Below, one piece after another: positions 8,687 through 49,394 of a DNA stretch of 64,000 bases. A program made the translations under genes and the position numbers. Source of the stretch: Bacteroidia bacterium (GTDB taxonomy: Bacteria; Bacteroidota; Bacteroidia; NS11-12g; UBA955); contig JBBAKM010000007.1 of assembly GCA_040403495.1 (NCBI GenBank), positions 486-64,485 on the forward strand, written 5' to 3'. The notes below the pieces were generated by a model that saw only the letters and a program-made list of their open reading frames with translations, was not told the DNA's origin and did not search any database. Position 1 is the first letter of the stretch. Each line of letters begins with the position of its first letter.

Positions 8687-8715
8687 TTCTCAAGGCTAAC
8701 TTAAATTAAAGTATT

Positions 8716-12952: not shown

Positions 12953-14428
12953 ATGAGGCTAAGATTATTTGCATATTTAATATTTTTTGTTCAAATACAA
13001 TCTATTGATTTAAAGGCTCAATGTGATAAATCTGTTGTACCACCAACAACTATAAATACCATCTTCATCACTCACAATTACACAGGCGATGTCACTTTTT
13101 ATACCTCAGCATTTAGTTCTAATTGTGTTACAGGCACTGTCACTACCCCTCCTAATTCTGTTTGGTTAGGAAGAAATGGCTCATTTAAATACACCCTAAA
13201 TTTTAGTAAAAATGTCAATGATTTGGTTATTGTTATAACTGGAACAGGGCAAACAGCCAATGAAAACTTTATATTCACAACAAACAAAGGAAATCCAACA
13301 ATAACAAGTAGCAATAATTGCTTAACAAGGATTGTTGGAAATGTAATTTTAAGCGGTAGTCCAAATAACTCAGGAGCTTCAGCAAGTGCTAGAGGTGGTG
13401 GTGGTGGCATTTTTACAATTTCTAATAACACTGCATTTAACTCCCTCACAATTTCAGGAGATGGAGGTCAAAATGGTTCTTTATTAGCGTTATGTAGCAG
13501 TTCTGTCGTTGAAGTTGAAAAAAAATCTTACTTTACACAAACTATTTATCGCTGTCCCAATTCCCCATTTACATTTGGCAACAAAACATACCTATTACCA
13601 GGAAAATACATTGACACTTTAGTTAATTATTTAGATGATGATTCCATAGTTACCACTCATTTATTTCATCATCCTAGCTATGAACAAAATATATACAAAA
13701 CAATTTGCGAAGGAGACACGTTTAAAACCGGCTTAAACCTATACACGCAAGAAGGTGTCTATAACCAAAATTTTTTAAGTAGATTTGGATGTGACTCTAT
13801 TGTTAAACTCAACTTAAAAGTAAGCCCCAAATCAACAGAAAACATAGAATTTACAATTTGTGATGGGGATACATTATTGTTAAACAACAAAGTCTATTTA
13901 AATGAAGGATTATTTCAAGATACTTTATTAAATTTCAGAGGTTGTGACTCTTTACTAAACATTGCAATTAATCAGATTGAAAAATCATACTACACATACA
14001 ATTACTTCATCTGTCCCGAGGATACCGTTATTCACAACAATCAAATTTTCACAGATATAGGAGAAACAATTGAAATATTAAAATCATACCGAAATTGCGA
14101 TTCCATAGTAAGTGTAAAAGTACAATTATTACCCAAGCTAAACGAGTGTAAAGATGCCACTTTTTTCATTCCAACAGCATTTAGTCCAAATAGTGACGGA
14201 CACAATGATGTATTTAAAATAGAAGGTGAACACATTAAAGAAATAGAAATGATGATTTTTAACCGTTGGGGCGAAATATTATTCCAAAAAACAGACCAAT
14301 CGGCCCAATGGGATGGATATTATCAACAAGAAATTTGTCAAGATGGATTGTACTTTTATCAAGTAAAAATAAAAGCCAATAACCTCAAAATCTACTACAA
14401 AAACGGCACAATTCATTTGATAAAATAA
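12953..14428 (+). CDS. Secreted protein with a T9SS type-B (CHU_C / gliding-motility-associated) C-terminal sorting domain
   Basis: 491 aa with an N-terminal signal peptide. The C-terminal ~90 aa, 'FFIPTAFSPNSDGHNDVFKIEGEHIKEIEMMIFNRWGEILFQ...GLYFYQV', is the type-B CTD signature. Confidence 0.75.
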   Translation: MRLRLFAYLIFFVQIQSIDLKAQCDKSVVPPTTINTIFITHNYTGDVTFYTSAFSSNCVTGTVTTPPNSVWLGRNGSFKYTLNFSKNVNDLVIVITGTGQTANENFIFTTNKGNPTITSSNNCLTRIVGNVILSGSPNNSGASASARGGGGGIFTISNNTAFNSLTISGDGGQNGSLLALCSSSVVEVEKKSYFTQTIYRCPNSPFTFGNKTYLLPGKYIDTLVNYLDDDSIVTTHLFHHPSYEQNIYKTICEGDTFKTGLNLYTQEGVYNQNFLSRFGCDSIVKLNLKVSPKSTENIEFTICDGDTLLLNNKVYLNEGLFQDTLLNFRGCDSLLNIAINQIEKSYYTYNYFICPEDTVIHNNQIFTDIGETIEILKSYRNCDSIVSVKVQLLPKLNECKDATFFIPTAFSPNSDGHNDVFKIEGEHIKEIEMMIFNRWGEILFQKTDQSAQWDGYYQQEICQDGLYFYQVKIKANNLKIYYKNGTIHLIK

Positions 14429-29379: not shown

Positions 29380-32304
29380 TTAATTTTTATTTTCGGGTTC
29401 TACTAAATAAGGTATATTAAGTGTAACACGTGTACCCGTTTCTAAATTTGATTCATTGCCTATATTTTCAATCGTAAAAAAAGATTCAATTTTTAATAGT
29501 TTACTGTAAGCTTTTAATCTATTTTGAATATTATCCAAACCATAAGACTTTCTCTCTGATACCTTTTTATTATACCCTACGCCATTGTCTGTAATTATTA
29601 CATTCAATAGCTTGTCTTTGAGTTTAACATCAAGTTGAATACGGTTTAATTGCTGTTTATGAGGAACCAATCCATGAATGATTGCATTTTCTACAAAAGG
29701 CTGAAATATCATCGTAGGCACTTTAACATTTGTTATGGTGGCGCTTGATGTGTCTGAGAAAAAACGATAGTCAAAATCTATGTTTATATTCCTTATGAGA
29801 CCTTCTAGTTTAATATACTCTTTAATAGTTTCTATTTCTTGTTCTAATGATATGAAACTGTAATCAGATTTCTCCAAAATGCTTCGCATTACTTTACCAT
29901 ATTGCCCTATGAACTCAAAAGCTTTTTCCTTGTCATTATCCAAAACTACACTTTGCAAACTCATTAATGAGTTGCTTAAGTAATGAGGATTAATTTGAGC
30001 TCTCAATGCTTTAAGTTCGCTTTCAAGCAAGACTAATTCTCTTTTTAGCGTATTTTGCTTTAACTTAAAATAGAACTTACTTATGTAAACAGCAAGAATA
30101 ATTAATATCAAACCATAAATCAAAATGGCTATTTGAGAGCTATACCAAGCTGGTTCAACTATTAATTTAATTTTTTTATAGCTTTTAACATCTGAATCTT
30201 TATTCTTCCTAAAATACACATTGTAAGTTCCTCTTTTCAAGGAATATAAAATCAATTCAAAGTTATTTAAGAGTATCCATTTGTCACTTATTTCTGGAAT
30301 TTTATATTCAATATTTGTATGGTTTAGTAAATCAATATCCGCTAAAGCAAGTTTCATTGTAAAATCAGCAAATCCTTCTTTTAAATAATATTGATAACTT
30401 AATGGTTGCTTATCTCCATTATAATCTATTTGTTGAATTATAATTGGATTATTGTTCTTATAAGGGATATATGTATTAGGATCAAAAACTACTATGCCAG
30501 ACATATTAGACAATGCAAATCTATCATCACTTAATCTTACGCCAGAGTTGTAAAACCTTCCATTAAACTCTTTATTTATTAAGCCATTATTTGTATCAAA
30601 TCTATAAATTTGCAATTCATTTTTAGGGTTTTTTTCAAACCCCAAAACCTCATTTTTTTCTATTAAAACCAATCCACTGTTTGTTGGAATCCAATAATTT
30701 CCTTTTTTATCCACTAGGTAATAATGAGCAAAATTTAATACTCCATTAGGATCATTAAAAAACTTACTAATCTTCAAATCCTTATCCATCCAATAAATAC
30801 CAGAACCATACGTAAATACCCAATATTTATTAATACTTGAATCATACTTGACAAACCTTACTTCCTTTCCTATTAATTCATTAATAATTTTCGACTTTTG
30901 GGTTAACAAATCATATAATTCAATCCCATCTTTTTCTCTTACTAAAAGCCACTGGCTTGGTTTATAAAACTCATGTGCAGAAGAAATTGTAAAATTTACC
31001 TTTAAGACATTCTCTAATTTGTTTTTCCCATTTAAGCAAAGCAATTTATTCCTGTGTAACACATATATTTTTCCTTTACTTAAAAATGCATCTGTATAAA
31101 ACTTTTCATTCGCTTCCGACGAAATATCCACTTTGTACTTTTTACAAGATTTGTCACTTATATAATAAACCGAGTCTTTGTTAAATAAGCATATTTCACT
31201 GCTGTTGATATTTATTGCGGCAGAAAAAAAATTGACAAACTGGAAGTTTTTGAATACACTTGAATTAAATGATAAAGGCATTCCTAAAGAATTAACAAAA
31301 ACTCGATAAACCTCCGCTTTTTCTTCCTCCCTTAAAGGATTTAATTCATTTTTAAAAAGACTTGGTTGTAGCAAATACAATCCATTTGTTGCGGAGTAAA
31401 AAATAGTTACTTTTTCATTTTTTAAATAGACAGATCTTTTTAAACTCTTATCCTCAATCCCATGCTTATTTATCTGTTTAAAATTCAATTTATTGTCTAA
31501 AATTATAACTTTAAACAAATCAGAACCTACATGTAAATCTATTTCATTGTTATTTTTATTAAATATTAAACTCGAGAGGTCAATTTTTCTATTTAAAATT
31601 TTTGGCAAATCATAAACTGCTTCTATTCTATCCTTATAAATCACATATAATTTTTTCGAGTAACTTAACATAGCAAGCCGGTTGTTAAATACAAAACCTG
31701 CATTAGAGAAAAATAAATGATCTATATTTGGTACTTTTTTGTCCTTGCCAAAAAAAATTTGATCTAAATTAACTTGATACCAAGTACTACTATCTAAATC
31801 ATAATAAAAAACACCATCATTTATATGATTAAAATTCCTTACAGTTGAAAATAAAACAGGATTTTCCTCTTTAAAAATCAATTCATAATTACCATTTACA
31901 ATACAATTTTTCCCAAAAACCAAACTTGAATCATAAATTAATTCAGAATTTTTATTGACCTTAAAAAAACGATTATCAGATGATTTAATTACCAATTCAC
32001 CATTTTCTCTTCTTTGAATTTTATCAAAACGATTATTTTTAATTGAAGGAAAGTTAATACTAGAATAATTAAAGAAACTTCTTCCATTATATCTACTTAG
32101 GCCTGATTGTGTAGCTATCCAAACAAATCCGTTTTTATCGCTATTCACATCATTAATTAGATTACTGGGTAAGCCATTTTCGTTAGTATAATGCTTTATC
32201 AAATAATCATTCTCATGTACTTTTTGTGAAGTAGCTGTATAGTTAAAAACCAAGAGCAAAACAATCAAAAACAAATCCTTTAAACCCTTTATTGTGCAAT
32301 TCAT
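29380..32304 (-). CDS. Sensor histidine kinase: periplasmic two-component-regulator propeller/Y_Y_Y-type domain + TM + LytS-type His_kinase/HATPase
   Basis: 974 aa with a signal/TM helix at the N-terminus and a long repeat-rich extracytoplasmic region. A TM helix (IAILIYGLILIILAVYI) is followed by the LytS signature 'INPHYLSNSL' and an ATPase domain. Confidence 0.8.
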   Translation of the reverse strand: MNCTIKGLKDLFLIVLLLVFNYTATSQKVHENDYLIKHYTNENGLPSNLINDVNSDKNGFVWIATQSGLSRYNGRSFFNYSSINFPSIKNNRFDKIQRRENGELVIKSSDNRFFKVNKNSELIYDSSLVFGKNCIVNGNYELIFKEENPVLFSTVRNFNHINDGVFYYDLDSSTWYQVNLDQIFFGKDKKVPNIDHLFFSNAGFVFNNRLAMLSYSKKLYVIYKDRIEAVYDLPKILNRKIDLSSLIFNKNNNEIDLHVGSDLFKVIILDNKLNFKQINKHGIEDKSLKRSVYLKNEKVTIFYSATNGLYLLQPSLFKNELNPLREEEKAEVYRVFVNSLGMPLSFNSSVFKNFQFVNFFSAAININSSEICLFNKDSVYYISDKSCKKYKVDISSEANEKFYTDAFLSKGKIYVLHRNKLLCLNGKNKLENVLKVNFTISSAHEFYKPSQWLLVREKDGIELYDLLTQKSKIINELIGKEVRFVKYDSSINKYWVFTYGSGIYWMDKDLKISKFFNDPNGVLNFAHYYLVDKKGNYWIPTNSGLVLIEKNEVLGFEKNPKNELQIYRFDTNNGLINKEFNGRFYNSGVRLSDDRFALSNMSGIVVFDPNTYIPYKNNNPIIIQQIDYNGDKQPLSYQYYLKEGFADFTMKLALADIDLLNHTNIEYKIPEISDKWILLNNFELILYSLKRGTYNVYFRKNKDSDVKSYKKIKLIVEPAWYSSQIAILIYGLILIILAVYISKFYFKLKQNTLKRELVLLESELKALRAQINPHYLSNSLMSLQSVVLDNDKEKAFEFIGQYGKVMRSILEKSDYSFISLEQEIETIKEYIKLEGLIRNINIDFDYRFFSDTSSATITNVKVPTMIFQPFVENAIIHGLVPHKQQLNRIQLDVKLKDKLLNVIITDNGVGYNKKVSERKSYGLDNIQNRLKAYSKLLKIESFFTIENIGNESNLETGTRVTLNIPYLVEPENKN

Positions 32305-32685
32305 TGTACTAAAAAAAAAGATAAATTCACAATTTCAACACAAGTTATACAATATTGTTTTAAACTATGAAGTCGCAAAATTAACTATTAGTGTGAAATA
32401 ATTTAAAAGATTTTCTGACAAGAATATGTTTTAAACATATTTTAATAACAATCTTCACATTTAGTTAATTGAGCACTCTTCATTAAGTAGTATTTTTTTG
32501 CTTGTTTTAATACTATCATTTCAACATTTATTGAATAAAACCAATAACCTAAATTATATTTTTGCATAATTTAACCCATTTAAGCTGTTATTGTTGTTTT
32601 TTAATTTCTGCATATTTGAATTAGTTCATTTACAAAACTTTTTTTTATAATCCCTTTCTTTTATACTTGGCCGTGCATTTTTTAC

Positions 32686-32756
32686 CGCTCTTTGATAAAC
32701 TCAGAACAGGCTCCAGCGCTGAGGTCGCTGAGGGGTTATTCACTAAGTCGCCTTAT
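32686..32756. repeat. Copy of the 'gataaactcagaacaggctcc.gcgct.aggtcgc.gagg' repeat; the second copy is at 38978
   Basis: About 60 nt are near-identical between 32686-32745 and 38978-39037. Confidence 0.75.
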
Positions 32757-33134
32757 TATAATATATTTCCTTGATAATTAATCCATTGAATAAGATATTA
32801 TTTGACCTTCGGTATGAAACTCTCTTGCAAAGTTTGAAACATAAAAATGAACAACTTGCGCTTGAACCACTAATACTTTCTGCCATTTTCCACAAGAAGT
32901 GCCTTTTAGTGGTGGTTTTAATTGAAATTATTGCACTTATCAAAACTCTAGAAAAAATAGTTTTTTGTTTGTTGACACCAATATAGAATTATTATTAATA
33001 GAAGTTGGATTATCCACTATTTTCATTTGTGATTTTGCTTCTTTAATAAAGAACCCTAAAAAAAATAGGCTTGAGGTTTGGCTTTTAGTTGTTTTTTTCA
33101 TTTTTTTAAATATCCTAATAAAATCTAAATAAAC

Positions 33135-34571
33135 TTAATTAATCCTTTTAGCAGACATCCAACTTTTACCATTTGCATCTGACAAAGTATAGCCTGAATT
33201 TGATGCCGCTTGAGAATAAATCCTTAATTTATATATTGCGGAACCTGTAGTGGTTACAAAATACTTACCATAACCGACACCTTGAACATTTAAAGAAAGT
33301 GCACTATATGTAGCTTGTGTTTCAGTATCACTAATCACTCCATTTGAAGATGATGTTAATACACCACTTACGCCTCCTGGTGTAGCTATATTAAAGCCTC
33401 TTAAACTCCATTCTATTTCCCAAACTCCAGCAGATGGTATTGTTATTGAAATATAATCTGTTGCAGTTGATGGGCTAGTTCCGGATGCAATAACCAAATT
33501 TGCACCAATTATTGGAGAAACAAATATAGGAAACACTGTTCTACTTATCATTCTCCATGCTGTTCCTGTACTTTGAATTGTAATCGAACTCAATGTAGGA
33601 ATTATAGTTGTTGAAATTCCATTTGTACCTAAAACATTTGATGCAAAAGACTTATCTACAGGACCAGAGTTAGCAACTACATATATCCTACCTGGACAAG
33701 ATGAAGCACTTGGAAGCGTTACAGTTTGAGTTGTGGCATCATTAAGAAATATAGTGTGGTCTTTGTTTCCTAATGTATATGTTGCACCTGTTATTCCTTT
33801 TGCAATTGGCGCAAAAGATCCTGATAATTCTAGTGTACTTGTTGGAGTTGTTGTACCAATTCCGACATCTCCATTATGTAATATTCTCATTCGTTCCTGT
33901 TCACTTGTATTACCAAGTGATGTCGTAGAAAATACTAGGTTTCCTCCCCCTTCTGTAGTAGTTTGATTTTCTGCTGTCAAGGCATTTATAGATGCATTTC
34001 TATTGTATGTAGTTCCGTTTGCGCTCTGAAACAATATTCCCGCTACTGCTGATCCTGAAACAAGTGCAGTGTTTACTGAAGGGTCTGCATTGTTAGTTTT
34101 ACGAATTGTAATCCATGCATTATTACCATTAGTAGTTGTTCCCCTAGTAATAGAAAAGTTTTGAATCGTTCCTCTAAAATCAAGAGATCTGTTTTCCATA
34201 TTTACTATTCTATTGCTTTTTAGAGTTCCATCAACCGTATAAATATTTTGTAGGTTTAAAGCATCTGCAATTTGAACCCATTGAGTGCCATCGTTATAAT
34301 AAAAACCAGGGCTTACATTATTTGGAGCAGTTCCTGCAGTAGCAGTGTTATAGACTGTCATACCTGAAATATGCGCGTTTAATGGCGAAGCATTATTAAT
34401 GGCACTTAGAGAAACTCTAGGCAAAAGCAAGCCTTTATTTGTGGACTCGAGTTCTAGAATAGAATTGGAATTAATCGTGGTTGGGTTATCACCCACTTTT
34501 ACTTGGGAATATGTTTCTTGAGATAATAATCCTAAAAAGAGAAGGATTAGGAGTTTGATTGTTTGTTTCAT
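33135..34571 (-). CDS. Secreted tail-fibre-like repeat protein, paralogue of 36184..38313 (shared N-terminal module)
   Basis: The start is chosen at MKQTIKLLILLFLGLLSQETYSQ, a signal peptide; the ORF track extends it upstream to 34652. The mature N-terminus VKVGDNPTTINSNSILELESTNKGLLLPRVSLSAINNASPL…YYNDGTQW is ~75% identical to that of the 709-aa protein. The 'ERMRILHNGDVGIGTTTPTSTL' repeat motif is present. Confidence 0.7.
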   Translation of the reverse strand: MKQTIKLLILLFLGLLSQETYSQVKVGDNPTTINSNSILELESTNKGLLLPRVSLSAINNASPLNAHISGMTVYNTATAGTAPNNVSPGFYYNDGTQWVQIADALNLQNIYTVDGTLKSNRIVNMENRSLDFRGTIQNFSITRGTTTNGNNAWITIRKTNNADPSVNTALVSGSAVAGILFQSANGTTYNRNASINALTAENQTTTEGGGNLVFSTTSLGNTSEQERMRILHNGDVGIGTTTPTSTLELSGSFAPIAKGITGATYTLGNKDHTIFLNDATTQTVTLPSASSCPGRIYVVANSGPVDKSFASNVLGTNGISTTIIPTLSSITIQSTGTAWRMISRTVFPIFVSPIIGANLVIASGTSPSTATDYISITIPSAGVWEIEWSLRGFNIATPGGVSGVLTSSSNGVISDTETQATYSALSLNVQGVGYGKYFVTTTGSAIYKLRIYSQAASNSGYTLSDANGKSWMSAKRIN

Positions 34572-34599: not shown

Positions 34600-34740
34600 A
34601 TTCTTATTTTCTCACTTCGGAGGCATTCACCACAGAGGCACAAAGAGCACAAAGATTTCCTCAGTATTCTCCGTGACTTTGTGGTGCTTTTTTTTTACCA
34701 CGGAGTCAACCTCCATAGGCGGACAGACACATGCACAAAG
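34600..34740. repeat. GC-rich hairpin repeat ('cattcaccacagaggcacaaagagcacaaagatttcctcagtattctccgtgactttgtggtgcttttttt…accacggag'), copy 1
   Basis: It is near-identical to 35170-35250 and shares cattcacc/cggagg motifs with 38360-38400 and 39050-39080. Confidence 0.75.
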
Positions 34741-34741
34741 A

Positions 34742-35122
34742 TTATAAATAACCATTAATAGTCCTTTTAACTCCATTCTTTAATAACACTTCGTTAAAAT
34801 TGATTAATAACCCTAGTTTCAAATTTTTAAGTTTTAAATAGGTAAGGAGTTGTGCAGTATGAATATCCGCTAATGCTTCAACACTTTTAATCTCTATAAT
34901 TACTTTATTTTCAACTAGTGCATCTATTCTATATCCTGCATCGAGTTTTACATTTTTATAAACTACTGGTAGTGATTGCTGTTGATATACTTCCAATCCC
35001 ATTTGCCTAAGTTCGTAAACTAAACATACTTCGTAGGTACTTTCTAAAAGCCCTGGACCAAGATGCCTATGTACTTCTATTGCTGCACCGATTACTATTG
35101 TTGAAATTTCGTTTTCTGTCAT
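34742..35122 (-). CDS. GxxExxY family protein (PD-(D/E)XK nuclease fold)
   Basis: 126 aa. The N-terminus 'IVIGAAIEVHRHLGPGLLESTYEVCLVYEL' contains the invariant G..E..Y motif, and the size is right for the family. Confidence 0.75.
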   Translation of the reverse strand: MTENEISTIVIGAAIEVHRHLGPGLLESTYEVCLVYELRQMGLEVYQQQSLPVVYKNVKLDAGYRIDALVENKVIIEIKSVEALADIHTAQLLTYLKLKNLKLGLLINFNEVLLKNGVKRTINGYL

Positions 35123-35124
35123 TG

Positions 35125-35300
35125 TTTATTTATTTACCGCAGAGGCATTCCCTTAGAAGGAATCTACCAAAGAGACATTCACCACATAGGCACAAAGAGC
35201 ACAAAGATTTCCTCAGTATTCTCCGCGACTTTGTGGTGCTTTTTTTACCACGGAGGCATTTACAGCGGAGGCGAAGAGTAAGCTGAGGTGTTTTCTTTGC
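35125..35300. repeat. GC-rich hairpin repeat, copy 2 (flanks the other side of the GxxExxY gene)
   Basis: See 34600-34740. The element ends with accacggaggcatttacagcggaggcgaagag. Confidence 0.75.
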
Positions 35301-35320: not shown

Positions 35321-36160
35321 CTATTCAGTTTTTATTTTATCCATAGATTCTTTAATTGCAGTTATGGTTTTTAGGTTTTGAGCTGCTATTTCATATTCAG
35401 GGGCTAATTCCAATGCTTTCTTAAAACTTTCTATAGATTCCATGTAAGCCTTATTTTCGTATTCTAACAATCCATTGATATTATATAAAACTGCTCTAAA
35501 CGGCACATTTATTTCTTTTTTGTTTTTTTCATTAAGTACAGAGAGAGAAACTTGATTTATTGTGGTATCTGCCATTAAACTATTACAAGTTACTTGCGCC
35601 TCTTTAACCCTTTTGAGTTGTTGTTGTAATTGCAGTAATGCATAGCCATGTTGTATGTTTTTTGAATTAGAATATAACTTTTGGTATGCATCTGCTGCTT
35701 CAACCGTTTGGTTTAAGGCATTTGCAGAAACAGCGAATATTTCTGTTATTAAATCAGAACTTCTACCACTTTCTTGAATCTCTTTAACTAATTTGTAAGA
35801 AATATCGTATTGCCTGTTTTGTGCATACATTAAGGCTAAGGTATCTTTATATTCTATATTACTTTTATTTTCAATCAAATAATAATTTAAAGAAACTATT
35901 GCTGTATTTAAATCACCCTTTTGTATTGACTGTCTGTATACTTTCACGTGCAGATTCTCATTTAAGCTCTTATTTGGATTGGTCTTTTTTACTTTTTTTA
36001 CCTTAACATCTTGTGCAAAACCTAAATTATAACATAATAGAATGCATAATACGATTAGTCTTCCTAACATTTTGAATCTATTTATTGATTTAAAATCCAT
36101 TATTTTCATTTTTACTGTCATTAATTTTGAATAAAAAAAGGACTTTGATAATGATACCAA
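35321..36160 (-). CDS. Tetratricopeptide-repeat protein with an N-terminal signal/TM segment
   Basis: 279 aa with hydrophobic 'LGRLIVLCILLCYNLGFAQ' followed by several TPR-like helical repeats (…ALMYAQNRQY…, …AYMESIESFKKALELAP…). The true start may be an internal Met. Confidence 0.55.
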   Translation of the reverse strand: MVSLSKSFFYSKLMTVKMKIMDFKSINRFKMLGRLIVLCILLCYNLGFAQDVKVKKVKKTNPNKSLNENLHVKVYRQSIQKGDLNTAIVSLNYYLIENKSNIEYKDTLALMYAQNRQYDISYKLVKEIQESGRSSDLITEIFAVSANALNQTVEAADAYQKLYSNSKNIQHGYALLQLQQQLKRVKEAQVTCNSLMADTTINQVSLSVLNEKNKKEINVPFRAVLYNINGLLEYENKAYMESIESFKKALELAPEYEIAAQNLKTITAIKESMDKIKTE

Positions 36161-36183: not shown

Positions 36184-38313
36184 TTATTTCTTTTCTAACA
36201 ATTCCAATTTAGCTTTTAATTCATCTATCTGTTTTTGTTGATCTTTGATTGCTTCCACTAAAACTGGCACTAAATTTTGGTAAGCCATAGAAAGTGTTTC
36301 GCCTTTAGTAACATCTCCTTCTACACCCATTACAACTTCGGGTACAACTTTCTGAACATCTTGTGCTAAAAACCCTAATTGTCTTCCAGACTCAAGGTTA
36401 TTGCTCCAATTATAATAAACCCCATTCAATTGGTTTACCAATCCAAGTGCATTTTCAACTTTAACAACATTGGTTTTTAAACGAGCATCAGAAGAGTGTA
36501 ACCAACCAGTAGTGGTGTATGTTCCTGTTGTTGTTCCATTAAATACAGTAAGTCTTTGTGATGGGGAAGCTGTTCCTATACCAACATTTCCATTATTATT
36601 GATTCTCATTCGTTCAGAAGTACCACCATTATTAGTTTCAAAAACAATTTTACCAGCAGCACGTGTTGAAGTAATAACTATTCCATTATCGGTCCCTGTT
36701 TGGCCTGTTGTAGTAATCGCACCAGCACTATTACCATCAGCTGAATTAATAAAATATAGACCTCGATTTGAAATATCACCAAAAACATCCAATTTTCGAG
36801 TTGGTGAAGTTGTTCCTATACCTATATTACCAGCAATATTAATCCTCATTCTTTCCTCACTATCTGTTTCAAAAGCAATCCCTGTAAGAGATCTTATTGC
36901 TATTATTGTATTACTATTGATTGCCGGCCCAACTCCACCAGCTCCTGAAACTATATAACTTGCAGAATTATCTATTCGAATATTTCCTCCTGAAACTTGC
37001 AGTCTTTCAGTTGGAGAGACAGTACCTATACCAACATTACCACTATTATTAATAACCATAGCTTCCGTTTCTACACTTGAATTTGGCTGTTTTACATGAA
37101 ATTCAATAGCAGGCTTGGTTGACCTTGAATCAAATGATATAAATGAACCTTGAAAAGTAGGTTGACTTACTCCCAATAAAGATGGCATGTTTGAACCAAT
37201 TCGAATAAGTCCAACAGTGTTTCGCATAATACCCATGTTATAAGTTGAACTTAATGCAATATTACCATTTACTTCTAACCTTTGTGATGGAAAATCTTGC
37301 AAACCACCGCCAATTAGTAGTCCATTTGGATTTAATCTCATTAATTGAATATAGGTTGAAGCATCATTGGTCTGTGCCCATGTAAAACCACCTGCCCCTG
37401 TTCCTCTATGGTTTACAAATCCAGAATAGCCTTGTGCTGCTAACCCACCAAATAAAATACCTGAATTCCAAGACAAATGCATTCCTTGATTATTATTTGG
37501 TGCACCTGATACAATCAAAGCCCCTCCTGATACACTTAGCCTTGAAGGTGCGGTAGTTCTTCCTATAGAAACATTTCCATTGGGATGTACAATAAGTCTA
37601 TCTCTTCCTCTTGACATCAATCTAAATGAGTTATTATTAATAGTTCCTACTCTATTGTTTCTAGTGTTAGTATAATTACCACCTAAACGCCAAAACGGTG
37701 ATGTTGGCGGACGAGTTGAAGACAAAACCCAAGTTGTTCCGTTAAATTGATAGGTATTTCCTGCATTTGCTCCTTCAGTTACAACTCTTTTCTCGCCTGA
37801 AACAGGAGTATAAAAATTCCAAATCAGATTTCCTGATGTATTTACACCAGCTAACTCTGCTATATTATTTGTTTGTCCAGCCCAGTCTCCACTCGCACCC
37901 GATGGCACAATATAAACATCCCCATCATCACCTGAGGTAGGAGGAGCTGTTAGCGTATTATCAATAACTGGACCACCATCGTTGTCAACATCAGCTAAAT
38001 CAGAAAAAGCAATTAACTGCCATTTAGTTCCGTCGTTATAGTAATATCCTGGAACTACATCATTTGGCAATGTTCCCGCAGTGGCAGTGTTGTATACTAT
38101 CATACCTGCTACGTGAGCAGATAATGGAGATGCATTGTTTGTGGCAGAAAGAGTTACTCTTGGCAAGAGTAATCCTTTGTTTGTAGCTTCCAATTCTAAT
38201 ACAGAATTTGAATTAATGGTTGTAGGGTTATTTCCTACTTTTACTTGGGCGTATACCCCTTGAGCGAACAATCCTAAAAAAAATAGGATTAGTAATTTGC
38301 TTGTTTTTTTCAT
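36184..38313 (-). CDS. Secreted tail-fibre-like protein with a C-terminal peptidase-S74-type intramolecular chaperone (self-cleaving) domain
   Basis: 709 aa with signal peptide MKKTSKLLILFFLGLFAQGVYAQ. It has the paralogous N-terminal module and three or more 'ERMRINxxGNVGIGTxSPxxxL' repeats. The C-terminus 'SSDARLKTNVVKVENALGLVNQLNGVYYNWSNN…' followed by a coiled-coil tail (IDELKAKLELLEKK) matches the SDxRxK(E/T)N[IV]…Y.W signature of phage tail-spike/endosialidase chaperone domains. Confidence 0.7.
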   Translation of the reverse strand: MKKTSKLLILFFLGLFAQGVYAQVKVGNNPTTINSNSVLELEATNKGLLLPRVTLSATNNASPLSAHVAGMIVYNTATAGTLPNDVVPGYYYNDGTKWQLIAFSDLADVDNDGGPVIDNTLTAPPTSGDDGDVYIVPSGASGDWAGQTNNIAELAGVNTSGNLIWNFYTPVSGEKRVVTEGANAGNTYQFNGTTWVLSSTRPPTSPFWRLGGNYTNTRNNRVGTINNNSFRLMSRGRDRLIVHPNGNVSIGRTTAPSRLSVSGGALIVSGAPNNNQGMHLSWNSGILFGGLAAQGYSGFVNHRGTGAGGFTWAQTNDASTYIQLMRLNPNGLLIGGGLQDFPSQRLEVNGNIALSSTYNMGIMRNTVGLIRIGSNMPSLLGVSQPTFQGSFISFDSRSTKPAIEFHVKQPNSSVETEAMVINNSGNVGIGTVSPTERLQVSGGNIRIDNSASYIVSGAGGVGPAINSNTIIAIRSLTGIAFETDSEERMRINIAGNIGIGTTSPTRKLDVFGDISNRGLYFINSADGNSAGAITTTGQTGTDNGIVITSTRAAGKIVFETNNGGTSERMRINNNGNVGIGTASPSQRLTVFNGTTTGTYTTTGWLHSSDARLKTNVVKVENALGLVNQLNGVYYNWSNNLESGRQLGFLAQDVQKVVPEVVMGVEGDVTKGETLSMAYQNLVPVLVEAIKDQQKQIDELKAKLELLEKK

Positions 38314-38345: not shown

Positions 38346-38412
38346 ATTTTTTATTTTTTTCACCCGGAGACATTCACCGCAGAGACGCGGAGAACGCGGA
38401 GGGGATTTTCGC
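38346..38412. repeat. T-rich run + 'cacccggagacattcaccgcagagacgcggagaacgcggagggg' member of the cattcacc/CGGAG repeat family
   Basis: It shares the gacattcacc.cag ag motif with 35180-35200 and cgcggag(g) with 39065-39085. Confidence 0.6.
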
Positions 38413-38413
38413 T

Positions 38414-38956
38414 TCATTTCCTTTTTATTGTGTGTTTTAATTTAACGACTGCAAAATTCAGTTCTATAGTTGTTTCGGTATTGGTTACATTAAGTTCATT
38501 GCCTATCCAATCTGATATTAATACACTTGTTTGATTCATTATTTCTTTTTGTTTTTCTGGATCTTCGGTTGTATTTATTGTTTCTAGGTTTCTTGTTAGT
38601 TCTTTGAATGTTGCAAATGCTTCTATAATGGAAAGAGTGGTTTGGGTTGCTTTGGCACTTTTTAAAATTGTTGCTAGCATATAAAGCCCTTTTTCAGTAA
38701 AGGCTTTTGGAAGTTTTACTTTCCCTCCAGCTGATAATGAAGACGAAAATTTCGACTTCATTGTATTCCACTCTTCTGTATTTAGATACAATATATACCC
38801 TTCAGGAAATCTATCGGGATTGTTTTTTACTGCCTCATTTACGCGTTTGGTTTCTACACCATACAAGGCAGCCACATCACTATCCAAGATAACTTTTGTT
38901 TCTCGGAGCATCATGATTTTGCTTTCTACTTCGCTATGGGTTAGTTTTCCATTCAT
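38414..38956 (-). CDS. ORF6N-domain (KilA-N-related, phage antirepressor-type) DNA-binding protein
   Basis: 180 aa. The N-terminal 'VILDSDVAALYGVETKRVNEAVKNNPDRFPEGY' is the ORF6N signature. Confidence 0.7.
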   Translation of the reverse strand: MNGKLTHSEVESKIMMLRETKVILDSDVAALYGVETKRVNEAVKNNPDRFPEGYILYLNTEEWNTMKSKFSSSLSAGGKVKLPKAFTEKGLYMLATILKSAKATQTTLSIIEAFATFKELTRNLETINTTEDPEKQKEIMNQTSVLISDWIGNELNVTNTETTIELNFAVVKLKHTIKRK

Positions 38957-38977
38957 TTATTAATTTTCTATTCTTTT

Positions 38978-39092
38978 ATTTACTGCTCTTCGATAAACTC
39001 AGAACAGGCTCCGGCGCTAAGGTCGCGGAGGTTTTCTTCTCTCTGCGCTCTTAGATTTTCACCACGGAGGCGCGGAGGTCGCTGAGGGGATT
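38978..39092. repeat. Second copy of the 'gataaactcagaacaggctcc' repeat, extended with accacggaggcgcggaggtcgctgagggg
   Basis: See 32686. The 3' part is GC-rich CGGAG repeats. Confidence 0.75.
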
Positions 39093-39093
39093 T

Positions 39094-40602
39094 TTATTTA
39101 TTCAATATAATTTTATAGGTTTTGGTTTGATAATTGCTTGTTACATTCAAAAAATACATGGCGTTATCCAAATGATTCAAATCTATTGATTGTAAACCCG
39201 ATTGTTTTGAATCATTACTCAAAATTAATTTACCATCAAAAGAAGTTAGCGTGTAGGTTAAATCTGTGTTTTCTGAAAAAATATTAATAATTCCTTGAGA
39301 TGGATTTGGATAAATTTTTACCACAGGATTAAGTCCATCACTAAATTCAACTATTTTGAAATCAGACTGAGTTGGATTCCCTTCAAAATCTACCATTGTT
39401 AATTTGTAAAAATTTAAGCCCAATTGTGCATTAACATGTTTAAATGCATAATTATTAACCAGTGATGAAGTTCCTGCTCCTTTTACTTCTCCTATTTTAG
39501 ACCAATTCGTTCTATCCACACTGGTTTCTAAAACAAAGTGACTGTTGTTGAATTCATTGGTAGTAGTCCAAGTAATTTGAGACACCAAATAACTAGCAGC
39601 TTGTGCATTAAAATCAATTAAGGTAACTGGCAATGGCGTTAATAAGTTAGTTGATTTACTGTAAAAAGCACCACTAGCGGAAGCAGAAGTAACTGTAGTA
39701 TATAATCTTGTATGCTTTACTGCAGATAAAGATGTACCTGTTGAAGGTGCATTTGTCCCTATGGCACCAACTCCGTCATCCCACATTGAAGAACCTTGAT
39801 ACTGAGTCACAAAGGCATCTGCATCTGAAGTATAAGCCGAACCATTAGTTGATGTATTATGTTGAAGTGTTAAATTAGCTGCCGAACCTGAAGTAGAATA
39901 AATATTCCAAGTTCGAAAAATTCCATTATCAGGAACTCTCTCATCAGAAGCAGACTCCGAATAGTTTTTTACTTGAACAAAAAAGTTATCAGTAGAATTG
40001 GGTGTTATGGTTGCAGGGGTATAATCAGTTGTAGCTCTTCCAACGGGGAAATCAAAAGAAGCAGAAGAAGCAATAGATTCTTTAGCTAAAAATCCCGTTC
40101 CATTGGTTACTATATATTGGGTTTCGTCTACATTGGTAATAGTAGCAGCGGATGCAACCTCAAAATTTTGATCTCCTAAAATCAAATGCCCATTTACAAA
40201 ATCCAAACCCGTTGTAATCCTTGCGTATGAATTTGTTAAAGTAACGTTATTGGTATTGTCTATTGCGATATTAATCAACGAAGGATGAGCTCCACCAATA
40301 GTAGAGCTATTACCTCCATCGAGTGTTTGAGCAGCAGCACCTACAAACAAAATCCTTCCTGTTCCAGCTTGTGTAGAAGTAGTATTGGCAAAAATTTCAG
40401 CCCCAGTATTAATAGTAGTAGCAGATCCTAACATGTGTAATGTGGAACCATTTTGAAAAAACATTTGTGCATCTACTCCTAATTGCAAATTACCAAAGTT
40501 ACCCATTTCTCCAAAAACTGAAAAAGAGCCATTGATATTAGTTTGGGAATGTGTTGCATTTATAAATAGCAATGTAAAAGCAAATAGAAGTGACTTCTTC
40601 AT
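39094..40602 (-). CDS. Secreted protein with a T9SS type-A (Por_Secre_tail) C-terminal sorting domain
   Basis: The start is taken at MKKSLLFAFTLLFINATHSQ, a signal peptide. The C-terminal ~80 aa, 'KIYPNPSQGIINIF…YFLNVTSNYQTKTYKIILNK', is the type-A CTD pattern. Confidence 0.7.
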   Translation of the reverse strand: MKKSLLFAFTLLFINATHSQTNINGSFSVFGEMGNFGNLQLGVDAQMFFQNGSTLHMLGSATTINTGAEIFANTTSTQAGTGRILFVGAAAQTLDGGNSSTIGGAHPSLINIAIDNTNNVTLTNSYARITTGLDFVNGHLILGDQNFEVASAATITNVDETQYIVTNGTGFLAKESIASSASFDFPVGRATTDYTPATITPNSTDNFFVQVKNYSESASDERVPDNGIFRTWNIYSTSGSAANLTLQHNTSTNGSAYTSDADAFVTQYQGSSMWDDGVGAIGTNAPSTGTSLSAVKHTRLYTTVTSASASGAFYSKSTNLLTPLPVTLIDFNAQAASYLVSQITWTTTNEFNNSHFVLETSVDRTNWSKIGEVKGAGTSSLVNNYAFKHVNAQLGLNFYKLTMVDFEGNPTQSDFKIVEFSDGLNPVVKIYPNPSQGIINIFSENTDLTYTLTSFDGKLILSNDSKQSGLQSIDLNHLDNAMYFLNVTSNYQTKTYKIILNK

Positions 40603-41150
40603 TTTAAAAATATTTAATTGATATGTTTTAATATTATAGTTCATAATGTTTGATTGATTAAATTGTACTAAGTGGTTCATTTTTGTGTAATTTAAAGTGC
40701 AGCAAAGTTAAGAACGTAATTAATGCTAATATTTTTACAGTAATGAAAGTGAATAAATATTTTCCCAAATGACCTTAAAATGAAACGAAATTACCTTTTT
40801 AGCTTTCGAGAGTAATTCAAAACCTATAGAATAGGGTATAAAAAGGTGTTAAATTAATGTTAATTTCACCAAATACACTCCCATTGATTGAAACCAATGT
40901 ACTACAACATGCTTTTTGTACTACAAATTTCACACAACATTCATTTTCGCTCACCGCTATTGATTAATACTTTGAAAATCAATCCATGAAAATAACATAA
41001 GTTAGAAAAAAAACCACAAACGAAGTACATAAAAAGATAAAACACTATATTTAAGTATAAAAATAGACTATAAAAATCCAATTAATAAGAAAAATGTACC
41101 CATTATTATAAAGTACTCGATAAAAATTTAGGTACTTTCATTTAAAATAA

Positions 41151-41257: not shown

Positions 41258-41923
41258 TTGACAATGCAACAACTCATAATTATCAACAAAGACAAAGAAC
41301 AGGCGGAAGATTTAAAAAGTATGCTTTCACCTCATTATTTTGTTAGAGGCATCTTTTCTAACATTGAGAGTTTTATTGAAGTGATGTCACTAAAAACACA
41401 TATTTACATTATCATTTATTGCAATAAGACCATCGATAATTTTGCAGCAGTAAAAAGCTCAAGAATCATTATTTACAACAGTTTAGAAAATGACAAGCTA
41501 ATATTTAATGCCATACAATTAGGAGTAAAAGGTTTTGTAAATCATACTCAGAAAATAAATGAGTTATTAGACATTATAGAAATAATCATTATGGGTGGTT
41601 GCTATGTAAGTAATACCATTATTTACAAACTCTTTAAACACATACAAGACATCAATGATTTAATCCTAGGAAAAAAAATACAGAAATACGACACACTATC
41701 CAGAAGAGAAGTAATGGTTTTTGAACAACTTCTTAGTGGATATTCGTACAAAGAAATTTCTACAAACCTTGGCATTTCAGTTGACACAACACGTAAACAC
41801 ATCAGTAGAATTTACAAAAAAATAAATATTCACAGCAAAGGAGAACTTTATAATCTACATTATAATGTTCAAATAAAATCCAAACAGTACAATCAATTAT
41901 TTCCACAATACATTAAACAATAA
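41258..41923 (+). CDS. LuxR/FixJ-family transcriptional regulator with a degenerate N-terminal receiver-like domain
   Basis: 221 aa. The C-terminal HTH 'LSRREVMVFEQLLSGYSYKEISTNLGISVDTTRKHISRIYKKINIHSKGEL' is the GerE/LuxR type. The N-terminal ~120 aa are receiver-sized but lack an obvious DD…D…K phospho-acceptor set. Confidence 0.7.
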   Translation: MTMQQLIIINKDKEQAEDLKSMLSPHYFVRGIFSNIESFIEVMSLKTHIYIIIYCNKTIDNFAAVKSSRIIIYNSLENDKLIFNAIQLGVKGFVNHTQKINELLDIIEIIIMGGCYVSNTIIYKLFKHIQDINDLILGKKIQKYDTLSRREVMVFEQLLSGYSYKEISTNLGISVDTTRKHISRIYKKINIHSKGELYNLHYNVQIKSKQYNQLFPQYIKQ

Positions 41924-41928
41924 TAACC

Positions 41929-42519: not shown

Positions 42520-42600
42520 ATTAAAACTTATAAACTTGAAATAACCTACAATTTAATGTTAATTTGCATTAATTTATTGGTACTTTATTGAAATCAAAAA

Positions 42601-43713: not shown

Positions 43714-43801
43714 TGGCGGAGAGTAAGAGATTCGAACTCTTGATACCTTGCGATATACACGCTTTCCAAGCGTGCTCCTTAAACCACTCGGACAACTCTC
43801 C
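43714..43801 (-). tRNA. tRNA-Ser (anticodon GGA), type II with a long variable arm; the CCA end is encoded
   Basis: The minus strand reads GGAGAGTTGTCCGAGTGGTTTAAGGAGCACGCTTGGAAAGCGTGTATATCGCAAGGTATCAAGAGTTCGAATCTCTTACTCTCCGCCA. It has a 7-bp acceptor stem, a D-arm with GG, an anticodon stem CACGC/GCGTG with loop TTGGAAA, a long extra arm and a T-arm GTTCGAATC. Confidence 0.9.
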
Positions 43802-46724: not shown

Positions 46725-49394
46725 TTATATCTTGGTAAGCTTAATAAGCTTTGTTTTATTGACAACTAAAGTATAGATACCCGAAGAGAAGTTAGTCAAA
46801 TCAACCATTGAAGATTCATTTGCTTTCAAAACATATACTCTTCCATAAATATCCACTAATTCTAAAGACCAAATAGTTTCACTTGAATTTATTTTAAGCC
46901 AATCTATGACTGGTTGAGGATACACTATTGTTTCATTTGACATTCTTTCATTAACACTTAATTTACCTGCGGTTTTGAACAACCAATTAGCAGTATCGAT
47001 ACCTTCATAAAAGATACCTAATTCATTTTTCACAAAATTAGATGGAATTTCAATTCCAATGAATGCACCATTTGCAAAACTCTGACTAGGCGTAACAGTT
47101 AATACACTATCTAACAAGGTTAATTCACTACTATTAGCAGATATGGTTTTAAACAATTGTTTATTTTGATATACTTTTATTTGACTACCTGCATTCAATG
47201 TTACATTTTGGTTAAACTTAATCGTCAACGGTGATGTTGTAGAGATGTCTTTAGACAAATGTAAAGGGGTTAACTGACTCATTTTTGGAGAAGCTGCCAT
47301 AGTGAAGTACCAAGTTCCATAAAAGATAGGGGAACTTTTTTGACCATACACATCAATAAAACATGAATCGGTTGCTATAACCACAAATGAACCTGGCTTA
47401 AATGCTTCAGCAGGTGTAATTGTAACCACAGAATCTACTACTTGTATGACACTACTTCCTACTGCAATAGTTTCTTTTAAACTTCCGTTTACAAAAATTG
47501 AGATATTACAATTGTTTGCCTTACTAACATTATCTTTATAGGTAATAGTTGGTAATACATTTGGCAATACATTCACTTTTAAATTTTCAGGAGACAAACG
47601 ACTCACTTCAGGTTTCTTTTCAATAGTATAAAAGAACCAATCTGTAAGTTTAATTTCAGGTGCATAAATATTGAAAGACGAATCTCTGAAAGAATTGGCA
47701 GTAACGCTTACTTCAATTTTTGAATTAATAGGCAAATCTTTCACAGGATTAATTACAATAAGTCTTCCATTTGCTCTAACATTATTAGATGTTACATTGA
47801 TTGTTTCAAACAATGTATTGTTAGCATAAATCCTTATTGTACCTGCTAGTCTTTTCAAAACAGTTTCATCAAACTCAATAGCTAAATCATCATTTGGCAA
47901 TATCATTTTAGCATCTTTTGTAGGAGATAGTTTAACTAACTTAGGAGCAACATTTTCATAATTGCAGGTGTATGCACGAGAATTTCTCTCAATTGCCCCT
48001 TTTGAAGTTAGAGTTTTATTCTTAAAAGCCCCGAATGAATTAGGATAATACGAACATCTAAAAACAGCACCATTGCCAAAGGCTCCATCTGCGCTAATGG
48101 TATTACCTACTAATGGATTTTTATATTCCCAAACAATTTTCTTTTGTGGAGTAACTTCAAAAAAGCGACCTTGAACACCACTACAAATCAATGTATTTCC
48201 ATTGGGCAAACGATTTGCCCCAGAGATAACTACTGAGAAAAATGCTGTAGACACAGAATCCTTGTAAGTCCATGAAAAGTTATTAGGACCGTATGGTAAA
48301 TTCATTTTATAAGCATTATTAGACAAATCGGGAATTTGAAACACATCAACAGTCGAATATAAAGTATCTCTTTCTTGACCATTATTGAAAATCATAATTT
48401 TACCTGAATCTAAATATCCACCTGGAATCCAATGAGCGTCATGTTGTTTAAACATTTTACGATCATTTTTTGTACCCCAACCATAGGCTTGTGGATTTCC
48501 CCAACGGTATATAATATCTCCTCCCATTCCTGAGTTTCCCCCTTGATGCGTTCCAGCTTCAGATTTAGTTGTACTATGATCAATGACCCAAACTTCTGAA
48601 ATATTATGGGTACTTATAATAATTTGATCTGTTTTTGCATTGTAAGCAACAGAATTGGCATGAATCCAATCGTATGTTTTTAAATTGGTTGCGTAATTAA
48701 TATTCATCAACTCAGGGTGGTCTGATACAACACCAAAATTAGGTTTACTAGGATCAAAATCTTGAATAATATGGTCAAATAAATCCCATTGCCATACAAT
48801 TTCAGCGCTGTCTTTTCCAATTGGACGTAATTCAATAATTCTCTCTCCCCACAATTCGTCTCCTGCGGGACCTTGTTGGAAATTCTCTGGCCTACGACCT
48901 AAATCTAATGCCTCTGTTTTGGAAATATGATGCCAAGCCAAAACTAAAATATTTCCATTTGGCATCACTTCAATGTCATGGTGCTGGGTTAATGAATCAT
49001 TGAATATTTCATAACTCCATAATAACTTACCAAACCAATCATATTCTTCGATATAACCACCTTTTCCACCAGCTGTCAAAAAACTAGTATCACTGTGAAC
49101 ACCTGTTTTTATTAAATGACCATCAGCTGTTAAATAAGAGGATAAACTAGGAGGTGTAAGCGTTGTCCATTGATGTACTTTTTGACCACATTTATTGATC
49201 AAATAAGTAGTATCGCAATTAATAGGAGAAAATAGAATGTATCCATTTTCATCGTTACCGGGGAGTTTCTTCTTTAAACCGAATGTTTTCTGAGCATAAG
49301 ACTGAGAAAAAGAAGAATTAACAAAAAAAAGAACGAGTGTTAAGAGAGAGAAAAATTTGTTCATAATTAGAAATCTTTTTAATAAAGCATGCAA
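46725..49394 (-). CDS. Arylsulfotransferase (ASST)-like beta-propeller protein with Ig-like repeats and a T9SS type-A C-terminal sorting domain
   Basis: 889 aa with a signal peptide. The ASST-like blocks 'HHDIEVMPNGNILVLAWH' and 'HANSVAYNAKTDQIIISTHNISEVWVIDH' are present. The C-terminal 'YPQPVIDWLKIN…GIYTLVV' is the CTD. Confidence 0.5.
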   Translation of the reverse strand: MHALLKRFLIMNKFFSLLTLVLFFVNSSFSQSYAQKTFGLKKKLPGNDENGYILFSPINCDTTYLINKCGQKVHQWTTLTPPSLSSYLTADGHLIKTGVHSDTSFLTAGGKGGYIEEYDWFGKLLWSYEIFNDSLTQHHDIEVMPNGNILVLAWHHISKTEALDLGRRPENFQQGPAGDELWGERIIELRPIGKDSAEIVWQWDLFDHIIQDFDPSKPNFGVVSDHPELMNINYATNLKTYDWIHANSVAYNAKTDQIIISTHNISEVWVIDHSTTKSEAGTHQGGNSGMGGDIIYRWGNPQAYGWGTKNDRKMFKQHDAHWIPGGYLDSGKIMIFNNGQERDTLYSTVDVFQIPDLSNNAYKMNLPYGPNNFSWTYKDSVSTAFFSVVISGANRLPNGNTLICSGVQGRFFEVTPQKKIVWEYKNPLVGNTISADGAFGNGAVFRCSYYPNSFGAFKNKTLTSKGAIERNSRAYTCNYENVAPKLVKLSPTKDAKMILPNDDLAIEFDETVLKRLAGTIRIYANNTLFETINVTSNNVRANGRLIVINPVKDLPINSKIEVSVTANSFRDSSFNIYAPEIKLTDWFFYTIEKKPEVSRLSPENLKVNVLPNVLPTITYKDNVSKANNCNISIFVNGSLKETIAVGSSVIQVVDSVVTITPAEAFKPGSFVVIATDSCFIDVYGQKSSPIFYGTWYFTMAASPKMSQLTPLHLSKDISTTSPLTIKFNQNVTLNAGSQIKVYQNKQLFKTISANSSELTLLDSVLTVTPSQSFANGAFIGIEIPSNFVKNELGIFYEGIDTANWLFKTAGKLSVNERMSNETIVYPQPVIDWLKINSSETIWSLELVDIYGRVYVLKANESSMVDLTNFSSGIYTLVVNKTKLIKLTKI

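Follow-up and report, generated by a model that had tools for sequence, protein, structure and literature searches.

A 64,000-nucleotide stretch of a Bacteroidia bacterium genome (contig JBBAKM010000007.1; "the window" below means this whole 64-kb stretch) carries, on its minus strand, a gene for a 709-residue fiber protein that ends in a Peptidase S74 intramolecular-chaperone domain. We consider it likely that the product is a Sec-exported, homotrimeric surface fiber or adhesin derived from phage tail fibers, which is autoproteolysed at Ser608 and belongs to a conserved mosaic locus. The features of the gene are, by position in the window:

36184..38313, minus strand: intact open reading frame (ORF) of the S74-ended mosaic fiber, 709 residues, identical in sequence to database protein P0001
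38248..38313, minus strand: Sec-type signal peptide, residues 1-22, read by eye, predicted cut between VYA and Q
37999..38247, minus strand: conserved N-terminal module (N-module), residues 23-105, precomputed Pfam match PF26696 "PTL_trimer", common to the paralogue
37726..37968, minus strand: DUF2793, residues 116-196, a beta domain resembling phage baseplate and tail proteins (Pfam E 7.5e-11)
36493..37626, minus strand: fiber shaft, residues 230-607, five repeats of ~70-90 residues, predicted trimeric beta-helix, at the C-terminal side of the mature fiber
36187..36492, minus strand: S74/ICA intramolecular chaperone, residues 608-709, 11.3 kDa, predicted to be released
36490..36492, minus strand: codon of Ser608, predicted nucleophile and first residue of the freed chaperone, kept in 36/36 homologues
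36475..36477, minus strand: codon of Lys613, predicted general base of the Ser-Lys dyad, kept in 36/36 homologues
36190..36282, minus strand: C-terminal helix of the S74 domain, residues 678-708, from the AlphaFold2 model

Residues 608-709 are a Peptidase S74 intramolecular-chaperone domain, as the first-pass annotation of this DNA, made from the letters of the sequence, had proposed together with a Ser/Lys dyad and a chaperone fold; the profile search, the alignment and the structural comparison each bore this out. The interval 36184..36520 encodes residues 598-709 plus the stop codon, and its sequence includes TGWLHSSDARLKTNVVKVENALGLVNQLNGVYYNWSNN; it closes with a helical tail, KQIDELKAKLELLEKK, and the final residues of the protein read KDQQKQIDELKAKLELLEKK. 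The Pfam profile Peptidase_S74 (PF13884, "Chaperone of endosialidase") matched residues 608-661 with an E-value of 2.9e-16 and 59.9 bits, over positions 1-57 of the 58 in the profile. The gathering cut-off is 22 bits, and a match so far above it is therefore not a chance motif. Among the NCBIfam models, none matched this fiber or its 478-residue paralogue. In an alignment of the C-terminal ~170 residues of 36 diverse homologues, obtained by protein search, six columns were invariant: Ser608, Asp609, Lys613, Gly647, Ala650 and Pro658. The first three lie in the dyad motif S608-D-A-R-L-K613, which has the form S-D-x-x-x-K, as in endoNF and Bd3182, and the other three fall in the family motif G(F/L)(I/L)AQ..P, of which the fiber's own version is GFLAQ.

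An AlphaFold2 model of residues 540-709, built from the same 36-homologue alignment, reached a mean predicted local distance difference test score (pLDDT) of 84.5, with values above 93 for residues 610-709. When this model was compared with the PDB by Foldseek, the best match was the ICA domain of MyRF (7DC3; E 1.3e-6, target-normalised TM score 0.63), and the two structures ranked after it were 4UW8, the C-terminus and chaperone of the T5 L-shaped tail fiber, and 3GW6, the K1F endosialidase chaperone. The next matches were mosaic adhesive trimer (MAT) fibers of Bdellovibrio (8OML, 8ONF, 8ON4, 8OL4 and 8OND), which aligned to the repeat part, and the GA-1 chaperone 3GUD stood at rank 20 amid the MAT structures. 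The predicted fold of this part of the protein accordingly agrees best with solved intramolecular chaperones.

A domain of this kind might act solely in trimerization and folding and stay uncleaved, in which case the fiber would keep its C-terminal coiled coil. We regard this as distinctly improbable, given that the Ser, Asp and Lys of the SDxxxK motif are invariant across the alignment and that the Pfam match spans the profile from one end to the other. To our knowledge, every tested S74 domain with this motif cleaves itself, endoNF and T5 pb1 among them. Bd3182 of Bdellovibrio bacteriovorus is a further tested case, in that it cuts itself at S782 and the S782A substitution stops cleavage (Caulton 2024, PMC10769870). 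In favor of an uncleaved domain it can be said that cleavage of the present fiber is argued from sequence and analogy, and that Table S3 of the same study sets "S74-like" tips in other phyla apart from "S74" (PMC10769870). Autoproteolysis at Ser608 remains the reading that we follow below.

At the other end of the protein, the N-terminal sequence MKKTSKLLILFFLGLFAQGVYA, followed by QVKVG, is, judged by eye, built like a Sec signal peptide, with n-, h- and c-regions, and resembles the substrates of signal peptidase I. The position of the predicted cut is kept, as conserved sequence starts straight after the A-Q junction in ~67 homologues. A glutamine at the +1 position is common in secreted proteins of Bacteroidota (the "Q-rule"). 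The fiber contains zero cysteines and is therefore not a lipoprotein. The N-module that follows is beta-rich in a structure model of the N-terminal part (pLDDT 82.7), and Foldseek found no significant homologue of it in the PDB; a search of the literature found no specific work on PF26696/PTL_trimer, and likewise none on S74 proteins in Bacteroidetes.

The DUF2793 part matches phrog_5363 and phrog_15388, two PHROGs of unknown function, as well as the structural proteins gp76/77 of Pseudomonas phage Yua, and its fold resembles a protein from the baseplate complex of the siphophage R4C (8GTC chains S/T; Foldseek probability 1.0, E 3e-3). These two chains carry the PDB label "Ribonuclease III", which looks like a carried-over misannotation. 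The shaft repeats bear the capping-loop motif (E)RMRI..(N)GNVGIGT.SP...L. Strict copies of the pattern [VI]G[IG]G..(S/F)P...L occur four times, at residues 334, 427, 497 and 577, and a fifth, degenerate copy occupies residues 246-259; at the DNA level the same repeats make up a family (D2) with five members. Both the signal peptide and repeats of the MRINxxGNVGIGTxSP type had been named in the first-pass annotation, and both are present. In a phmmer search of the PDB, the shaft repeats matched Bd2133 (8OND, E 6.2e-9), Bd1334 (8OML and 8ON4) and Bd2439 (8OL4), and many tail-fiber families of PHROGs match them too.

With such domains, the protein could be the receptor-binding fiber of a tailocin, an extracellular contractile injection system (eCIS) or a particle associated with a type VI secretion system (T6SS), or the fiber of a prophage that lies elsewhere or has degraded. 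Indeed, every domain has phage relatives: the fiber matches 36 PHROG families, mostly tail fibers, 822 phage records share its repeats and S74 domain, and the DUF2793 part has the baseplate likeness described above. Among the 2.9 million viral contigs of IMG/VR, the S74 domain, used as a single-sequence query, gave 211 matches, all at 49% identity or less. The distal tail fiber of Thermus phage phiFa is 31% identical across residues 402-696, and the best identities to phages and viral contigs are 31-49%, whereas chromosomal homologues reach as much as 96% in the C-terminal block. The Sec signal peptide also speaks against a phage-type particle, since tail proteins that are assembled in the cytoplasm lack one.

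The surroundings of the gene were scanned with Pfam on most larger ORFs of the window and with PHROGs on seven neighboring genes. The window holds ordinary chromosomal genes (dnaE, dnaX, pyrB, asparaginase, lpxK, O-antigen ligase, Wzz, cystathionine lyase and SprA), and the Pfam scan returned no capsid, portal, terminase, sheath, tube, baseplate, tail or integrase gene. With PHROGs, the fiber paralogue alone of the seven neighbors matched a structural family, and in the two scans together the 64-kb window had no phage, tailocin or T6SS genes. The tail-gene cluster and the missing secretion signal expected of a prophage, tailocin or eCIS fiber are thus both at odds with what was found, and the locus is chromosomal, with non-phage neighbors conserved in several genomes. 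We therefore hold a particle-borne fiber to be very improbable. The first-pass annotation had placed the gene in a non-prophage setting next to a two-component system and had offered two readings of it. The setting is as described. The reading as a surface fiber or adhesin gains support because the repeats match MATs, a signal peptide is present and the non-phage locus is conserved, while the tailocin-like alternative is disfavored by that signal peptide and the lack of tail genes in the scans.

The locus to which the S74 fiber belongs comprises nine positions, all on the minus strand:

39094..40680, minus strand, position 1: protein of the type IX secretion system (T9SS) cargo type (T9SS-CTD), 528 residues, with a C-terminal sorting domain
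38414..38956, minus strand, position 2: ORF6N-domain (anti-repressor-like) protein
36184..38313, minus strand, position 3: S74 fiber
35321..36070, minus strand, position 4: TPR-like secreted protein, 249 residues, directly downstream of the S74 fiber, with weak TPR matches
34742..35122, minus strand, position 5: PDDEXK_3 protein
33135..34571, minus strand, position 6: paralogous fiber P0035 of the non-S74 class, 478 residues from ATG, with the same signal peptide and N-module
32784..33101, minus strand, position 7: decayed third fiber gene, of which a 53-residue ORF retains a signal peptide and the first part of the N-module (MKKTTKSQTSSLFFLGFFIKEAKSQMKIVDNPTSINNNSI)
29380..32304, minus strand, position 8: sensor His_kinase of the Y_Y_Y type, 974 residues
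28672..29367, minus strand, position 9: LytTR response regulator

The paralogue P0035, which had been said to share the N-terminal module and to lack the chaperone, is ~80% identical to the S74 fiber across residues 1-105 and has one fiber repeat in common with it. It has no Pfam S74 match and ends instead in a different C-terminal tip domain. A 505-residue form of the P0035 ORF, with a TTG start, merely reads through an intergenic repeat. In the decayed gene, the 53-residue ORF is followed by frame-shifted pieces that match the C-terminus of P0016, the product of the third fiber gene in locus L094; the GC content of the region 32784-33101 is 26-31%. The third fiber gene is intact in L093 and L094, and the PF26696 N-module is present in all paralogues of the locus.

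A matching gene order is found in the assemblies L093 (GCA_030682255.1, "Bacteroidota bacterium") and L094, and synteny of the locus was seen in L093, L094, L084 and L083, with flanking genes that are 34-89% identical. In L093 and L094, identity to the window is 75-89% for ORF6N, 57-63% for the TPR-like protein and 82% for PDDEXK_3, and the kinase (34-36%) and regulator (38-39%) form a pair at the same end of the locus. Orthologues of the T9SS-CTD protein, at 54-56% identity, hold the same position in L084, L093 and L094, and orthologues of the TPR-like protein adjoin PTL_trimer fiber genes in L084, L083, L093, L094 and L095. A more distant orthologue of the fiber, P0005 (1226 residues, 37% identity), also has DUF2793 and S74; downstream of it lies a homologue of the TPR-like protein (29% identity, E 1e-24), and upstream of it are two further genes with PTL_trimer and a pair of genes for a histidine kinase and a LytTR regulator.

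The fiber slot in front of the TPR-like gene is filled differently from genome to genome. It holds a 943-residue fiber without S74 in L093 and a 651-residue fiber without S74 in L094, both of which resemble the window fiber over the first ~80-100 residues only (48-70% identity). In the closer relative L084 it holds P0002, which is ~90-100% identical over residues 1-450, falls to ~33% thereafter and has a different S74 allele. P0003 is ~90% identical to the window fiber at both ends and ~20-30% identical in residues 351-550. Because synteny is kept while the slot fiber differs past ~100 residues with sharp breakpoints, we take the fiber genes, from these comparisons, to be cassettes of a conserved locus, in which the proximal end of the fiber stays constant and the shaft and tip can be exchanged. 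The 90%-identity cluster of the fiber has one member, as against 50-51 for DnaE and DnaX, which is consistent with a fast turnover of fibers. Programmed inversion of the shufflon type was considered and rejected: inverted repeats are only weak (22-28 nt, 71-83% complementarity) and both fiber genes lie on one strand.

The small PDDEXK_3 and ORF6N genes in the fiber locus are bordered by intergenic repeats that are 60-75 nt long and comparatively rich in GC. The pair around PDDEXK_3 (34620-34694 and 35172-35246) is 96% identical, and the others are 60-85% identical (34600-34662, 35233-35295, 38347-38409 and 39032-39094; 32678-32744 and 38976-39042). L084 lacks ORF6N at the corresponding site, and in L093 PDDEXK_3 is placed elsewhere. 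Because of the flanking repeats and of this absence and shift in place, the two genes may be mobile cassettes.

The exchange of tips bears on what the fibers do. Instead of adhesins for external targets, they could be structural or protective parts of the surface layer, or decoys (phage-receptor mimics or matrix fibers, for example). This fits with the very large size of the family and with its presence in non-predatory Bacteroidota, and fast tip swapping is also expected under phage or immune pressure. A mosaic with a conserved proximal and a variable distal part is, however, the signature of recognition proteins, and in all characterised relatives (phage fibers and Bd2439) it is the variable distal end that attaches to surface glycans. 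A purely structural, protective or decoy role is in our estimate unlikely, and we keep to the reading as a surface fiber or adhesin.

The N-module is distributed differently from the shaft and chaperone. With a threshold of E<=1e-3, an N-module profile found 33,063 representatives (50% clusters), a number that falls to 10,324 at E<=1e-10. With one genome taken per species, at least 584 N-module loci were confirmed, 75% being the best N-module match among those listed, and the counts that follow rest on the 80 of these that are listed. All 80 are from Bacteroidota and they span Flavobacteriales, Cytophagales, Chitinophagales, Sphingobacteriales, Saprospiraceae and Paludibacteraceae; they contain 129 N-module ORFs, six of which end in S74, and tandem arrays of 2-6 N-module paralogues are common. 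In IMG/VR the N-module had 7 weak matches, as compared with the 211 of the S74 domain. Because of these viral counts, together with the restriction of the listed loci to Bacteroidota, the searches indicate that the shaft and chaperone are a shared phage heritage and that the N-module belongs predominantly to cells, and specifically to those of Bacteroidota.

Several points weigh against the reading as an exported, anchored and self-processing trimer. The analysis shows the domain identities, the invariance of the catalytic residues, the fold, the synteny and the mosaicism. The AlphaFold2 model of residues 540-709 is that of a monomer; the trimer, like cleavage, surface display, adhesin function and two-component control, is inferred. 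The S74 fiber has no T9SS C-terminal sorting domain (Por_Secre_tail/TIGR04183 or CHU_C) by Pfam and NCBIfam and no lipobox, which would have indicated an outer-membrane route. The N-module is also found at internal positions, in up to 8-9 copies per protein, and in a few phage tailspike-like proteins, and may therefore serve for trimerization or as a neck instead of anchoring the fiber to the cell. As for control by the neighboring pair, a LytTR regulator stands near N-module genes in ~5 of the 80 loci. A general link between N-module and LytTR genes was rejected on this count, and the association is limited to close relatives of the present locus.

Proteins with 8-9 N-modules along their length include P0146 (1432 residues), P0167 (4024 residues) and P0183 (2484 residues). 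On viral contig L091, a 625-residue tailspike-like protein without a signal peptide (7722-9599) has the N-module at residues ~95-160, and its gene comes directly after a likely portal gene, judged as such by position. On viral contig L086, a 177-residue N-module protein with a signal peptide (7947-8480) lies beside lysin-like and tail-fiber-like genes. A gene pair also recurs among the N-module loci, in which a protein of 540-970 residues is followed by one of ~205-235 residues that consists of a signal peptide, the N-module and little else; the loci that carry it (L014, L016, L019, L020, L025, L026, L030, L031, L033, L034, L037, L038 and L071) are from Flavobacterium, Myroides and Paenimyroides. 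P0089, with 1019 residues and two N-modules, is deposited as Daphnia sinensis and is most likely a Bacteroidota contamination of a eukaryotic assembly.

By analogy with the solved endoNF, T5 pb1, MyRF and Bd3182 systems, the fiber would be made in the following way. The precursor would leave the cytoplasm via Sec, and removal of the signal peptide would give a chain of 72.6 kDa. The 102-residue S74 domain would trimerize first, through its helical tail, and the resulting trimer would then template the folding of the upstream repeats into a triple beta-helix. Ser608, activated by Lys613, would cut the bond on its own N-terminal side, freeing the 11.3-kDa chaperone and leaving a fiber of 61.3 kDa per chain (residues 23-607). 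In the mature fiber, the N-module and DUF2793 would lie proximally, and the last turn of the beta-helix (ending in TVFNGTTTGTYTTTGWLHS), laid bare by the cut, would be the distal tip, which probably binds glycans. The product would be one of two to three mosaic fibers of the locus. On the grounds of synteny alone, the TPR-like secreted partner is a candidate for the assembly or anchoring of the fiber, and the pair of Y_Y_Y-type kinase and LytTR regulator is a candidate for its control.

It is conceivable, though we would not rely on it, that the locus as a whole is a dedicated system of non-predatory Bacteroidota for the display of surface fibers and for recognition, in which the TPR-like partner would assemble, export or anchor fibers that have no T9SS signal of their own, the two-component system would turn the fibers on when it senses a surface or polysaccharide cue, and cassette swaps would retarget the fibers to other cells or glycans. 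If this is true, the MAT principle would extend from predators to bacterial cell-cell and host recognition in general.

Further genes and features of the window lie outside the fiber locus. The T9SS translocon protein SprA (2412 residues; 49548-56786, minus strand; SprA_N E 8e-181) is encoded 11 kb from it, and T9SS-sorted proteins (Por_Secre_tail/CHU_C) are found at 46725..49394 and 12953..14428, in addition to the one at position 1 of the locus (39094..40680). SprA, these sorting domains and the distribution of homologues agree in assigning the organism to Bacteroidota. Three regulator genes are divergent from the locus (41258-43329, plus strand) and encode a LuxR/GerE-type protein (221 residues), a weakly receiver-like protein (196 residues) and a second LytTR response regulator (242 residues); the same trio adjoins a fiber gene on contig L001. 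A tRNA-Ser gene follows beyond the trio at 43714-43801. Scans for sigma-70 promoters and terminators did no better than on shuffled sequence.

The fiber is a clear example from the Bacteroidota of how bacteria took over phage receptor-binding modules, the self-cleaving S74 chaperone included, as surface fibers of their own. Existing knowledge of the S74 mechanism itself is unchanged, and what is of remaining interest is the conserved, fast-shuffling locus, in which distal fiber parts are swapped at the strain level, and the export route. The N-module is very abundant, yet apparently no member from Bacteroidota has been studied functionally. The swapping of distal cassettes, the TPR-like partner and the linked two-component system offer handles on export without a T9SS signal, on targets and on regulation.

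Several known systems can be set beside the fiber. The same combination of N-module and S74 is found in proteins of Dyadobacter, Flavobacterium, Spirosoma and others that NCBI names "tail fiber domain-containing protein" or "Chaperone of endosialidase" (for example P0049, P0054, P0055 and P0053). The first of these labels is borne by thousands of such proteins, and we found no functional study of them in the literature. MyRF, the source of the best structural match, likewise has a module that trimerizes and then cleaves, with a beta-helical stalk upstream of it, and identity is 22-26%. As a eukaryotic transcription factor of the endoplasmic reticulum (ER) membrane, in which cleavage frees the DNA-binding domain, it has a role unrelated to that of the fiber. 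The phage CIMCD proteins (K1F 3GW6, T5 pb1 4UW8 and GA-1 3GUD) agree with the fiber in the domain itself, in the Ser-Lys motif, in its place after a triple beta-helix and in the C-terminal helix. In contrast to the window fiber, they are cytoplasmic proteins without a signal peptide that attach to the virion via N-terminal adaptor domains; identity of the fiber is 13-16% to these phage structures and at most 31% to any deposited phage.

The closest system is the MAT superfamily, defined in Bdellovibrio bacteriovorus from 21 proteins (Caulton 2024, PMC10769870). MATs have a signal peptide, a conserved beta-rich N-domain of ~130 residues and a trimeric beta-helix shaft, with capping loops of the form V-G-G/N-x-x-x-P-x-x-x-L; 13 of the 21 end in S74 with SDxxxK and the other eight in other adhesive tips (PMC10769870). 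Their display at the surface has been demonstrated, and Bd2439 binds glycans; the Bdellovibrio N-domain, too, is without a significant PDB homologue (PMC10769870). The window fiber shares with them the signal peptide, an N-module common to paralogues, beta-helix repeats with capping loops and, at the C-terminus, an S74 domain that bears SDxxxK. In both systems S74 fibers coexist with S74-less paralogues in a mosaic architecture with swapped tips. It differs in its Bacteroidota host, with no evidence of predation, in its length (709 residues versus ~1000), and in that its N-module (PF26696) has ~83 residues, against ~130 in the Bdellovibrio N-domain, and is followed by DUF2793. It also belongs to a conserved locus that unites a TPR-like partner, a T9SS-sorted protein and a kinase/LytTR pair; no such locus was found described for the Bdellovibrio MATs in the parts of that study that we consulted (PMC10769870). 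When a 142-residue fragment of Bd2133, rebuilt from the PDB alignment, was used as a query, it returned only unrelated short metagenomic proteins. The fiber can be said to work like the S74 class of MAT fibers, and it very probably belongs with it, as the pair of S74 fiber and S74-less paralogue follows the MAT scheme in one feature after another. Table S3 of the study already lists MATs outside Bdellovibrio, in the Flavobacteriaceae Dokdonia pacifica (481 residues, S74-like), Kordia algicida and Patiriisocius, and also in Saprospiraceae and Salinivirga (PMC10769870). The kind of fiber described here is already known, namely chromosomal fibers that end in S74 and are accompanied by S74-less paralogues, as set out for the MATs in 2024, Flavobacteriaceae included.

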